Source: an uncultured Candidatus Micrarchaeota archaeon (GTDB lineage Archaea; Micrarchaeota; Micrarchaeia; Anstonellales; Bilamarchaeaceae). From it: a DNA stretch of 64,000 bases. Shown piece after piece: positions 2,061 through 19,239 of the stretch. Location: contig OY970229.1 in the NCBI GenBank assembly GCA_963714085.1, positions 1,056,001 through 1,120,000 on the forward strand. The letters are read 5' to 3'. Under the pieces are notes generated by a model that was not told where the DNA came from, did no database searches, and was given only the letters and a program-made list of their open reading frames with translations. Within the stretch, counting starts at the first letter, position 1. Each line of letters opens with the position of its first letter. The translations under genes and the position numbers were made by a program.

Positions 2061-2317
2061 GTAGGCTTCCCGGTTGGCCGACTGAAACAGCTGTGGAGCT
2101 CAAGTCCGTCCGCTCGGTTCTGTTTCCTGCGAGCACGGAATGGAACGCTTAGGGCTGCTCCTTTCGGCCTGACCCGGTTCACGAGGCATCCCGCCACACA
2201 GGGCAGAACGTCTACGCTTCAGGAAAAGAGGCGCAACTGAAACAGGAAACGCCCCGGGCATTCGAGCCGCCTAAGGGGATTTGCGGTGCTGGGACCCCTG
2301 GCCCCACTCTAGCCCAC
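2061..2317 (-). ncRNA. ffs: Archaeal SRP (7S) RNA, compact
   Basis: Helix 8 signature GAACCGGGTCAGGCCGAAAGGAGCAGCCCTAAGC; terminal helix GTGGGCT/AGCCTAC; Alu-domain loops AGGGG/CCCCT complementary; TTAAATA box about 25 nt upstream. Confidence 0.9.
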
Positions 2318-3442: not shown

Positions 3443-3505
3443 ATTATCATACCCCCATAACAGAATGTTGTTTTAGTGTCGCACGGTATATTTTTAATTA
3501 CTTAG

Positions 3506-4814
3506 GCCCGGGAAATCCATCTTAAGTCAAACCCAAGGCACGGCTTTAGCCGTTGGATGAAAGGGCCGAATGTGTCAGCTCCGTCGTGAGCACCGTGGAA
3601 ATCCACCTGGGAAACGCTTATAAACAGCCTTTCCGGCAAATCCTTATGAAAGCAATGCGGGCCTGGAGGTACAGAATCTACCCTTCCAGAAGCCAGGAAA
3701 AAATCCTGGACCGCCACCTCTACGAATGCAAAACCATCTGGAATTCCCTGCTGGAATACACAAAGAAGTATTATGAAGAAACAAGGAAATTCCCTGCCAG
3801 AAAGCAGCTTTACCTGCGGACAAAAGAAACCGACATCTTCTCCCAGGTAGCCCAGAATGTTGCAGACCGGCTTGCAAAATCCCTGAAAGGATTTGTCGCA
3901 AAGAGGAAAGCAGGCAGGAAGGCAGGATTCCCACGGTTCAAACCAATCGAACGGGTAAAATCTTTCACTTACCCCCAGTTCGGTTTCAAACTCGATGACA
4001 AGCTGGAGCTATCAGGCATCGGAAGCGTTTCCATCAGAAAACACAGGGAAATGGACGGGGAAATCAAAAACCTCACCATAAAGAAATCCCCTTCAGGAAA
4101 ATGGCATGCGATTTTCACGGCTGAATCCGAAAGAAAGATGCCTGAGAGGAACAAGAAGCTCGAAGTAGGGATAGACCTTGGGATAGAAACATTCGCCTAT
4201 TTGAGCGACGGCTCGAAGATAGAGAACCCACGGAATCTCAGATTGGCGCAAGAGCGGCTGGCGCTCACCCAAAGGAGAATGTCGAATAAACAAAAGGGCA
4301 GCTCAAACAGGGCCAAAGCCAGAAAAGCGGTTGCAATCTCCTATGAGAGGCTAACGAATAAGAGAAGGGATTTCCTGCACAAGGCTAGCCGCGCCCTTGC
4401 GGAGAATCATTCGCTCATAGCCATGGAAGCGCTGAACAACGAAGGATTGGCACGGGGTTTTCTGGCGAAAGAGGTATTGGACTGCAGCTGGGCGGAGTTC
4501 GCCAACATGATCAGCTACAAGGCGGAAGGAGCTGGTTGCGAAGTCGTGCTGGTGGACCCTGCCTACACCTCGCAGAGGTGCAGCAGCTGCGGCCTGATAG
4601 TGAAGAAAACGCTTGCTGAGAGGTGGCACGATTGCACCTGCGGTGCATCCATGCACAGGGACCTCAATGCAGCGTTGAACATACTCCAACGAGCTACCGG
4701 CGGGACGCCGGGAAGTAAGGCCTGCGGAGAAGAGACCTCTACTGGTTATACGCATAATTGGCAAGTATCTTCGATGAAACAGGAAGCCCACGCCTTTAGG
4801 CATGGGTAGTTCAC
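3506..4814 (+). mobile_element. IS200/IS605-family (IS1341-type, tnpB only) insertion sequence
   Basis: Left-end hairpin CCAA(GGCA)CGGC-TTTA-GCCGTTGG (3533-3556); right-end GAAG + CCCACGCC-TTTA-GGCATGGG hairpin ending in TCAC (4811-4814); left boundary after TTAG (3502-3505) is inferred; no tnpA. Confidence 0.85.
3646..4809 (+). CDS. tnpB: RNA-guided endonuclease TnpB
   Basis: RAWRYRIYP N-terminus, GFPRFK, RuvC motifs GIDLG / IAMEAL / HRDLNAALNI all intact, CSSCG..CTCG zinc ribbon; TTATAAA box about 22 nt before the ATG (leaderless). Confidence 0.95.
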   Translation: MKAMRAWRYRIYPSRSQEKILDRHLYECKTIWNSLLEYTKKYYEETRKFPARKQLYLRTKETDIFSQVAQNVADRLAKSLKGFVAKRKAGRKAGFPRFKPIERVKSFTYPQFGFKLDDKLELSGIGSVSIRKHREMDGEIKNLTIKKSPSGKWHAIFTAESERKMPERNKKLEVGIDLGIETFAYLSDGSKIENPRNLRLAQERLALTQRRMSNKQKGSSNRAKARKAVAISYERLTNKRRDFLHKASRALAENHSLIAMEALNNEGLARGFLAKEVLDCSWAEFANMISYKAEGAGCEVVLVDPAYTSQRCSSCGLIVKKTLAERWHDCTCGASMHRDLNAALNILQRATGGTPGSKACGEETSTGYTHNWQVSSMKQEAHAFRHG

Positions 4815-17241: not shown

Positions 17242-17970
17242 TCATTTCTTCGCGAGCAGGCCCGGCTTTTTCAGGAACGCGAACTTCTCTGGATGCGAGT
17301 CGAACTCCGAGAGTATGTCCCTGCACGCGAAGCCGAACCTCTTGTTGAATTCGGCCGGTCCAGGACGGCCCATGTCCTTGACCACATAAGCCGCGTTCTG
17401 CTCGATGTTGCCGTCCGAGAGGTAGTAGAACGCCGCGCCCCTGTTCTCCTTGAACTCCGAGTAGTCCGGGTCGAAACAGTCCGCCACCAGGTTCGCGAGC
17501 ACCAGCGTGGTCTCCCCGGGATTTATCGTGACGTGGCTGTGGTTCGGAGGTATGAGCAGCACCTGCCCGGCCTCAGCCCTTATCATGCTGACATCCACGG
17601 AGCGGTCGTGGTTGGTGCGCTGGAGCAGGAATATCGCGGTGCCGCCGAGCACCTGGTAGACCTCCGGGTAGCCCAGGCCGCCCTCGGCGATCGGATGGCT
17701 GTGGCCGTAGGTCTTTGCGCACTCGTCAAGTATCACCCTGGACGGCATGACCGTGATGTCGAAGCGCATGCCGTCCTTCTTGTATACCTCCCTGAACATG
17801 TAGTAGATGTCCGGGTCGCCCTCGAAATCCGGCATGACCCTCCCCCTTAGCACGTCCCGCAGCTCGGAGAGCTTCCGCGCGTCCCTCTTGTGGGGTTTGC
17901 CGTCTACGAAGACCTGGTCGTCCGCCAGCTCCACCCTCACAGGCTTCTCATAAAGAGTCCGCATGCTCAA
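17242..17970 (-). CDS. Cupin-type glucose-6-phosphate isomerase family protein
   Basis: KTYGHSHP, YPEVYQVL.G, IPPNHSHVTINPG, RGAAFY. Confidence 0.85.
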   Translation of the reverse strand: MSMRTLYEKPVRVELADDQVFVDGKPHKRDARKLSELRDVLRGRVMPDFEGDPDIYYMFREVYKKDGMRFDITVMPSRVILDECAKTYGHSHPIAEGGLGYPEVYQVLGGTAIFLLQRTNHDRSVDVSMIRAEAGQVLLIPPNHSHVTINPGETTLVLANLVADCFDPDYSEFKENRGAAFYYLSDGNIEQNAAYVVKDMGRPGPAEFNKRFGFACRDILSEFDSHPEKFAFLKKPGLLAKK

Positions 17971-18361
17971 CTACCCGCTTCATCCTTCCGAACTCGTTCC
18001 TCTTCTCCATGGGCTTCTTCACCCTGAGCTTCTGCTTCCTCATGCGCTTGAGCAGCAGCTTCAGCAGCAATACGAAACCGAGGTTTTTAATGCCCTCAGC
18101 CTCGAGCCCGAGCTCTATGCGGGAGACCGCCTTCGTGGTCCCTATGAGGAACGACGCGTCTATCGCACCGCTTCCGTCGAATGACATGAGCTGCTCGTAC
18201 AGGGCGTGCTTCATGACCTGGAGCTCCTTGCGCAGGCGCATGAGCTTGACGTTCTCCGGCTCCATGTCCAGGGGGATGTCTATGGGGAACGCTATCAGCG
18301 TCCTTGCGACGTAATCCCAGCCCTCGCTCTCGATGGTCTCGTGTGGGACGACTGGTTGCAT
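17948..18361 (-). CDS. Hypothetical protein
   Basis: MQPVVPHE... start with TTTTTAA box upstream; overlaps the GPI start; upstream extension in the track is doubtful. Confidence 0.6.
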   Translation of the reverse strand: MQPVVPHETIESEGWDYVARTLIAFPIDIPLDMEPENVKLMRLRKELQVMKHALYEQLMSFDGSGAIDASFLIGTTKAVSRIELGLEAEGIKNLGFVLLLKLLLKRMRKQKLRVKKPMEKRNEFGRMKRVVEHADSL

Positions 18362-18568
18362 GGGGGGAGATTGGACACGCAAGGTTAAAAAAATCCTCTG
18401 GCGGACACGGGTGGGATTAGCCGGCAGCTTCATGTCCCCTTTGAAGCCCGCCTCAAGCGCCCCGAATCTCTGCGACAACCCGGTCGAGAGGCACGAGCCC
18501 GTCCACTTCACCGCGCTGAAATCCATGAAGACGTCCACAACGCCGTAATCGTTGTCCTTGTAGTGCGG

Positions 18569-18694
18569 GCCGGGAAGTGAAGCCTGCGGAGACGAGACCT
18601 CTGCTAGTTATAAGCATAACTGGCAAGTATCTTCAGGGAAGCAGGAAGCCCATGCATTTAGGCACGGGTAGTTCACAAATAATCGCGCTATTTT
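18569..18694 (+). ncRNA. Orphan copy of the tnpB omegaRNA / IS right end; guide begins 18677 (AAATAATCGCGCTA...)
   Basis: 18569-18676 aligns ungapped to 4707-4814 with 94/108 identity by hand count, ending in GTAGTTCAC; no tnpB or left end adjacent. Confidence 0.8.
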
Positions 18695-19239
18695 TTCGCA
18701 CCGAACGCCGCGACGACAGTGTATCTCGGCGCCGTCCCTGGCTTCAGCTCGGAACGCATGAGATAGAACTCCTCTACATCGAACGCGCCGAACTCTTCAT
18801 CGGAATGCTTCCGCAGGAACTCCTTCACGTCGATTTTCCTTTTCACGCGCGCAATGGTCAGGTGCGCGGAGAAGCCGCGCGCCTCCTCCTTTCCGATCCC
18901 ACGCAGCGCTCCGATCACTTTCTCAGCGAGCGCGTCCAGCTCCGGACTCTTCGCTCCGGCCCATACCACGCGGACGTAGCTCTCGTCCGGGAATACGCCG
19001 GTCCCTCTGAGCGGGACCGTGAACCTCCCGAACTCCACGCCCCGCAGCCTGCGTTCGATCTCGCCGACCGCGCGCTCCGGGACCTCTCCGATGAACCTGA
19101 GCGTGAGGTGCATGTTGTCAGGCCTCACAGGGGTTATCGCGTCCTGCGGCAGCTCCTGCGCGAGCTCCGCGATCCTCTCCCGCAGCCCGCGCGGGGCCTC
19201 CACGGAAACAAACAGCCTCTCCCCGCCTCCAAGCGCCAT
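18688..19239 (-). CDS. thpR: RNA 2',3'-cyclic phosphodiesterase (2'-5' RNA ligase family)
   Basis: Two HxT motifs (HLTLRF, HLTIAR), GVFP, SEL..G..Y. Confidence 0.92.
   Translation of the reverse strand: MALGGGERLFVSVEAPRGLRERIAELAQELPQDAITPVRPDNMHLTLRFIGEVPERAVGEIERRLRGVEFGRFTVPLRGTGVFPDESYVRVVWAGAKSPELDALAEKVIGALRGIGKEEARGFSAHLTIARVKRKIDVKEFLRKHSDEEFGAFDVEEFYLMRSELKPGTAPRYTVVAAFGAKK

Follow-up and report, generated by a model that had tools for sequence, protein, structure and literature searches.

The 108 bases at positions 18569-18676 (+ strand) of the window, the whole 64,000-nucleotide stretch of DNA from an uncultured Candidatus Micrarchaeota archaeon analysed here, are in all probability what remains of the right end of an IS200/IS605 element of the tnpB-only kind, a likely deletion leftover. 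With its first hairpin and pseudoknot loop missing, the scaffold is predicted not to yield a TnpB guide that works. The first-pass annotation had offered two options for this orphan sequence, a decayed IS remnant or a retained standalone guide; the former is supported by an empty allele in relatives, by a host gene deleted along with the element, and by the loss of the 5' hairpin and of the loop that forms the pseudoknot. The orphan belongs to the plain class of decayed right ends, a kind that is already known, and IS605 loci reduced to their ends have been described (PMC7290912, in the excerpt available). It resembles decayed IS1341-type and other IS200/IS605 ends in its right-end hairpin, GAAG DNA guide, TTCAC end and overlap with the tnpB 3' end, and in the presence of several copies at different stages of decay within one genome. 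It differs in that the right end alone remains and host DNA appears to have been lost with the deletion.

Alignment recovered the ungapped identity of 94/108 between 18569-18676 and 4707-4814 that had been reported, and the orphan matches the six intact copies of the genome at 91-95 of 108 positions. As an IS200/IS605 (IS1341-type) right-end remnant, it corresponds to omegaRNA positions 18-125 of a 125-nt conserved frame. Its 3' terminus is the cleavage motif TTCAC, and homology ends, as had been noted, at TCAC (18673-18676), beyond which the 3' flanks of the orphan and the window's IS differ. The DNA guide GAAG and the subterminal hairpin, the TnpA binding site that is also omegaRNA stem 4, lie at 18645-18668 (+), with 6/8 pairs formed versus 6-8/8 in intact copies. 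The terminal features of an IS200/IS605 right end are in place (GAAG, hairpin, and TCAC at the boundary of homology to all six copies). Both tnpB and the left end are missing, in agreement with the first-pass annotation, and neither TTTAA, a left guide nor a left hairpin was found upstream of the orphan; a complete IS1341-type element, with left end, tnpB and right end, is present at 3498-4814 and not at 18569. An exact 518-nt contig of sequencing run X1, which may be the source sample, covers both orphan junctions (18508-19025), making an assembly artefact unlikely. An Rfam scan of the window gave no omegaRNA family at gathering level, the RAGATH-18 match on the window's intact copy staying below threshold (25.8 bits versus a cut-off of 44.9). 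An SRP RNA lies at 2061-2317 (- strand; Rfam RF01854, 67.6 bits), and four tRNA genes lie elsewhere in the window.

The intact relative in the window is a tnpB-only IS200/IS605 element at 3498-4814 (+; Pfam PF07282, PF01385 and PF12323). Its tnpB (3646-4809, +) encodes 387 aa with intact RuvC D-E-D motifs, its full omegaRNA spans 4690-4814 (+; covariance model score 137.9 bits), and its left end includes TTAG (3502-3505) and the DNA guide AAAT (3513-3516). The genome, a single contig of 1.57 Mb, holds six full copies, the sisters being 85-88% identical to the window's copy, in addition to two more distant tnpB genes. All six 387-aa TnpBs keep the RuvC motifs GIDLG, IAMEAL and RDLNAA. No match to the Y1 transposase TnpA (PF01797) was found in the genome, which is 87.65% complete by markers, and the elements are therefore classed as IS1341-type; the tnpB frames are open in all six copies despite this. 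Every intact copy sits at TTTAA in AT-rich, intergenic, promoter-like DNA, although the genome is GC-rich. A literature search on TnpB with Micrarchaeota gave no paper that, by title or abstract start, deals with this TnpB family.

The TTTAA at 3493-3497 (+) precedes the window's element and is common to all six intact copies, which share a layout with 15-16 nt between TTTAA and AA(A/G)T and a hairpin after the latter. We take the pairing register to be the one that fits AAAT to TTAA and GAAG to TCAC. The first-pass annotation had named TTAG as the target motif, which is contradicted by G001, a congeneric genome in which the site occupied here by sister copy IS5 is empty: the IS5 flanks join without a gap after TTTAA, versus a 9-nt gap when joined after TTAG. 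TTAG as the TAM is ruled out on this ground; it lies inside the left end, and the earlier target search therefore relied on the wrong motif. IS5 was the one decisive case among seven empty-site attempts, the sites of IS1, IS2, IS4, the relic O2 (described below) and two G001 elements being too diverged or rearranged. The empty site of the window's own copy is too diverged to read. Element boundaries together with the IS5 site indicate that TTTAA is the likely TAM of the family. Cleavage in IS608 takes place 19 nt from the foot of the hairpin, at a site that pairs with a 4-nt guide located there (PMC3201880, from the portion of the text available), and the distance from TTTAA to the hairpin foot in the window's copy is also 19 nt. 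The Sulfolobus protein SisTnpB1, another archaeal IS200/IS605 TnpB, is reported to use the TAM TTTAA (10.1101/2023.03.06.531077, in partial text); here, by contrast, the TAM is a prediction from element boundaries, and the host is an archaeon of Micrarchaeota type.

The scaffold that the orphan would have to provide was defined by comparison of tnpB-linked right ends, which were taken from 25 of 41 loci. The resulting alignment has 26 rows, 23 of these ends and three added by coordinates; two sequences (L050 and L057) with an insert or a mis-called end were omitted from it and added back for the pseudoknot count, which covers 28 sequences. Conservation starts 17 nt upstream of the orphan's first base, so that the orphan, presented by the first-pass annotation as an omegaRNA copy, is not a complete one: the first 17 of 125 conserved positions are gone. 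RNAalifold places a hairpin, P1, at positions 8-22 of the alignment, with up to 11 two-sided changes per pair and two-sided changes in 4 of its 6 pairs across the 26 sequences. In the whole structure, 92.6% of 726 cells are paired, above all 500 shuffles and the slid controls, the sequences being kin and not independent. The P1 loop (14-16) pairs with positions -3, -4 and -5, the first pair being G-C in 28/28 sequences, the second A-U, G-U or G-C in 28/28, and the third A-U in 22, C-G in 5 and U-U in 1; pairing of the loop with the 3' UUC is complete in 27 of the 28. Just one of 20000 shuffles equals this observation, a level of support overstated by kinship. An alternative pseudoknot, of the 5' GCUAC with a GUAGU near the 3' end, showed two-sided change in none of four pairs and was rejected in favour of the loop-to-UUC pairing. 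In the window's IS, P1 occupies 4697-4711 (+), its loop at 4703-4705 pairing with 4810-4812.

This layout is close to that of the ISDra2 omegaRNA, where -103A to -105G are the pairing partners of -5U to -3C, and where TnpB binds stem 1, a triple helix and the pseudoknot, the latter stacked on stem 1 (PMC10097598, in the part of the article available). By covariation, the family has the same 5' stem with a loop pairing to -5 to -3, a stem 2, a variable stem 3 and a right-end stem with a UUUA loop. An ISDra2-like pseudoknot is thus the likely core of this Micrarchaeota TnpB family. The orphan differs in that only the part 3' of the pseudoknot loop is retained: it has neither the 5' GCUAC motif nor the pseudoknot loop, P1 has lost its 5' arm, and 2 of 6 P1 pairs and 20 of 25 invariant positions are kept. 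The P1 positions of a covariance model trained on the 26 tnpB-linked right ends are unaligned in the orphan, which scores 88.1 bits versus 131-142 bits for intact copies that are themselves in the training set. For a Sulfolobus TnpB, 5' truncation of the reRNA to less than 113 nt of CDS-derived RNA is reported to reduce activity sharply (PMC11043419, in the available excerpt). We infer that TnpB would be unable to use the orphan RNA; by analogy with ISDra2, an RNA devoid of stem 1 and the pseudoknot would not load productively.

A competing explanation, which we consider quite unlikely, is that the remnant is transcribed by read-through and loads a resident TnpB in trans, a GUGAA/UUCAC helix replacing the pseudoknot, with empty alleles as the only natural target, that is, as selfish homing with no host function. 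Standalone omegaRNAs are reported to act in trans (PMC10691335, from partial text), six TnpBs with intact RuvC motifs are encoded in the genome, and an AT run at 18385-18394 could serve as a weak plus-strand promoter. Stem 2, the stem 4-like hairpin and the right-end hairpin are predicted still to form in the orphan. The three pairings singled out in the first-pass annotation do all form when the 108-nt orphan is folded with 16 nt of flank in ViennaRNA, with mean pair probabilities of 1.0 for CCUGC/GCAGG, 0.97 for CUAGUUAU/AUAACUGG and 0.93 for GUGAA/UUCAC, and the 108-nt orphan has a cleaner in silico fold than the corresponding part of the window's IS, a point against the remnant reading. 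However, the last of the three is unstable in longer transcripts, dropping to 0.12-0.18 in folds of 180-260 nt. Stem P3 is lost in the orphan (0.05, versus 0.03-0.48 for the window's IS). The middle pair of GUGAA/UUCAC (position 28 with -3) is unpaired in 26/26 tnpB-linked copies, marking the helix as non-native, and such a helix would hide the pseudoknot strand. Against trans loading stand this unstable, non-native helix and the loss of P1 with the pseudoknot loop, and the nearest empty allele seen, on metagenome contig L033, diverges from the guide after 3 nt. In terms of a standalone trans-acting omegaRNA, compatible TnpBs are thus available, but the scaffold, with its 5' stem and pseudoknot, is incomplete.

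The substitutions in the orphan fit a decaying right end. Several had been described as keeping or improving pairing, but as a set they are not mainly improvements. Other intact copies have the orphan's state at 6 of the 14 positions that differ from the window's IS, the GCAGG change being shared with IS3. The remaining 8 changes are private: pairs are broken at 18593, 18656 and 18665 and improved at 18603 and 18606, while 3 changes are unpaired in the model. The pair-breaking changes at 18656 and 18665 lie in the right-end hairpin. Eight random changes would break 2.7-3.3 pairs on average, which matches the three observed; there is hence no sign of purifying selection. Two or more pair-improving changes arise in 2-7% of random draws (P 0.02-0.07), a mild point in favour of the earlier view that counts against the remnant reading. 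Both of these changes fall within a hairpin that many relatives lack entirely, and they may come from an extinct parent copy. Overall, the four retained helices keep 27 of 30 pairs in the orphan versus 27-28 in intact copies, also a point against the remnant reading.

The surroundings of the orphan preserve a record of how it may have arisen. On one side lies an intact thpR gene (18688-19239, -), encoding a LigT-like RNA 2',3'-cyclic phosphodiesterase (Pfam PF02834, E 8e-25), whose neighbourhood is syntenic in G001 and L033. On the other side, at 18431-18568 (-), is the 3' remnant, about 50 codons, of a hypothetical gene of about 250 aa, with 92% nucleotide identity to L033 and 62% amino acid identity to residues 198-250 of a 251-aa G001 protein; it has no Pfam match. 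The rest of the homologue of the G001 protein is not present anywhere else in this genome, and transfer of the missing part by recombination between IS copies is ruled out, no second piece being found. The remnant has no stop codon, about 9 nt being missing relative to L033 (by eye, 18420-18445), and its frame continues into that of the next gene, which starts near 18361, to form a 196-aa ORF at 17948-18538. In L033, which is 90% identical, thpR is followed by an AT-rich spacer with TTTAA and the intact gene, with no element. The order in the congeneric G001 (82% identical) is thpR, a type IIG restriction-modification gene and the intact 251-aa gene; the restriction-modification gene (1032 aa, L031:2511-5609) is absent from L033 and from the window. 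Empty alleles with an intact host gene are thus found in both of the two relatives that cover the locus, neither of which is a strain of the same species, and a contig of run X4, whose organism may be the same as that of L033, skips 18569-18685. The interval between thpR and the hypothetical gene is a repeated insertion site. Elsewhere, related elements lie in opposite orientation between the same two flanking genes in G001 (L019, on contig C10) and in this genome (C1:840147-841450), which suggests independent insertion at one promoter.

Based on these comparisons, we propose the following history for the remnant. The genome contains six intact copies of the family, with TAM TTTAA and end motif TTCAC. 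One copy would have inserted 3' of a TTTAA in the AT-rich promoter region between thpR and the ~250-aa gene, as the empty allele implies; this would have made the thpR-side flank the element's guide. The insertion point appears good but not base-perfect: in L033, TTTAA is followed by AAA..TCGCG, matching the bases after the window's TCAC, and the alignment needs an indel next to TTTAA. The left junction of the old insertion is deleted in the window. A deletion of ~1.8 kb, made up of ~1.2 kb of element and 612 nt of host DNA (the L033 span), would then have brought the omegaRNA P1 loop up against codon ~200 of the host gene, taking with it the promoter and first ~200 codons of that gene along with the left part of the IS. 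At the breakpoint, the element reads GCGGGACG and the L033 gene GCGGCACG, a 7/8 microhomology by eye with three further bases lost, and microhomology joining is plausible. The gene tail is 92% identical to L033 versus 88-89% for the flanking genes, and the deletion is therefore recent on this scale. What is left has neither a left end, and so cannot move as a unit, nor 5 of the 25 invariant scaffold positions.

This origin also accounts for the guide. The would-be 16-nt guide (18677-18692, +) is the right flank of the old insertion, as the empty allele in L033 indicates, and a "different guide", as the first-pass annotation put it, is ordinary, since every IS200/IS605 copy has its own right flank; the flanks of the six intact copies all differ from one another. 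The reported run of the guide, antisense, into the thpR stop is correct as to position, the last 5 nt being antisense to the end of thpR, but the overlap arises only because the guide is an insertion flank. Right after the 16-nt guide is a T6 run (18691-18696), missing from L033, which counts against the remnant reading. The genome yielded no TAM-flanked target: the best matches among 1278 TTTAA sites are 9/12 and 10/16, similar to the best genomic matches of the other eight guides at TTTAA sites; a single site of the 1278 matches the 6-nt seed, as for four other guides. The search with TTAG that had been suggested gave the same picture and no target. In IMG/VR, TTTAA is followed by the initial 12 bases of the guide at 8 loci and TTAG by 12 bases at 6 loci, as partial matches only, the TTTAA loci reaching 13/16 at most; none of the IMG/VR loci exceeds a 13-nt run or 14/16 guide matches. 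The guide of the window's IS, used as a control, gives 10 viral loci versus 8, which puts the viral matches at control level.

These searches bear on the possibility that the remnant is kept by selection as a host-serving guide, for virus defence or gene regulation, which we regard as extremely improbable. The two pair-improving private changes, the T6 run at the end of the guide and the 8 viral loci with TTTAA and the first 12 guide bases could be read in its favour; the higher count for the control guide, genomic best matches like those of other guides and the lack of the orphan in both relatives speak against it. Moreover, the TnpBs are nuclease-intact, unlike TldR, and a TldR-type repressor role, which does not fit because all six retain their RuvC motifs, was rejected, the guide not being conserved in relatives. 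The retained standalone guide of the first-pass annotation accordingly gained no positive support, there being no conservation in the two relatives, no genomic target and no viral matches beyond the control level. A naturally minimised omegaRNA, which would have gained the GUGAA/UUCAC helix and two stabilising changes after the loss of stem 1 and the pseudoknot loop and which, with U6 after the 16-nt guide, would program one of the six resident TnpBs in trans, is likewise very unlikely.

The genome-wide search that had been suggested did reveal further scaffold copies: with 150 of 411 genome candidates scored, the covariance model found the scaffold in at least 13 places, at least 8 beside tnpB and at least 5 without it (the orphan, O2, O3, X538 and X514). 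O2 is a right-end remnant at C1:778755-778879 (-; model match 778755-778864, locus L084), in which a TAM-like ATTAA and the tip of a left end are joined straight to the right end, by a deletion whose two sides, GGGAAAT of the left end and GGGAAGT of the scaffold, share GGGAA(A/G)T microhomology. Its breakpoint falls at almost the same scaffold position as that of the orphan, and it also has no P1. O3 (C1:1473577-1473678, -; model match 1473577-1473661, locus L088) is an older right-end remnant directly upstream of a tRNA gene, with anticodon UUU (Lys) read by eye, and X538 (C1:538061-538175, +; model match ~538100-538175, locus L090), also older, is directly upstream of an ORF; both retain an internal TTATAA that could act as a TATA box. 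A left-end-only remnant (TTTAA, guide AAAT and hairpin; C1:272284-272333, -) is 90% identical to the left end of IS4/IS6. With O2, O3, X538 and this left end found in addition to the orphan, end-only relics are common in this genome.

The positions of such relics raise the question of a cis element independent of TnpB, either a thpR terminator or a minus-strand promoter via TTATAA, which we judge highly improbable. The orphan lies 11 nt past the thpR stop and has stable hairpins, and two other remnants in the genome immediately precede a tRNA gene or an ORF. Yet the downstream gene has an AT-rich promoter-like run of its own (18385-18394), relatives do without the orphan, and neither a promoter nor a terminator emerged from a consensus scan of 18300-18800, which was of bacterial type and weak for archaea.

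Standalone omegaRNAs and omegaRNA-encoding PATEs, for which the primary report is said to be that of Altae-Tran et al. in 2021, offer a further comparison with the remnant. The orphan is like them in being a gene-less scaffold with a flank-derived guide in a genome with a compatible TnpB. It differs in lacking the left end, the 5' stem and the pseudoknot loop; a PATE, or mobile mini-element, is gene-less with both ends, and the orphan has one. PATEs that encode omegaRNA have been described (PMC10055086, as seen in part), and elements of both kinds are said to be mobilised, keeping both ends and a scaffold fit for use. X514, a single-copy, gene-less element of ~295 nt at C1:513830-514130 (+; 39.6 bits, omegaRNA 514023-514130, loci L089/L112), makes a stronger candidate for a PATE-like standalone omegaRNA than the orphan does. 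Its TTTAA and left-end hairpin are accompanied by a TATA-like run in the interior and by a complete omegaRNA that has P1, the GGA/UUC pseudoknot register and a TTCAC end. X514 is assigned to another IS605 subfamily and is missing at the same place in G001; its guide has no TAM-flanked target in the genome.

On this reading, the orphan is a transposon relic of an ordinary kind whose value is that of a worked example only. The locus records the insertion of an IS into an archaeal promoter, followed by the loss of a lineage-specific gene. It also points to the core and the TAM of an uncharacterised Micrarchaeota TnpB family, which are likely to be an ISDra2-like pseudoknot and TTTAA, respectively. 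If a minimised omegaRNA were real after all, it would show that a substitute can replace the pseudoknot core that TnpB and Cas12 guides are believed to require. Loading of TnpB by a truncated RNA of this kind would matter for guide engineering and would bear on standalone omegaRNAs as steps toward CRISPR-like reprogramming.
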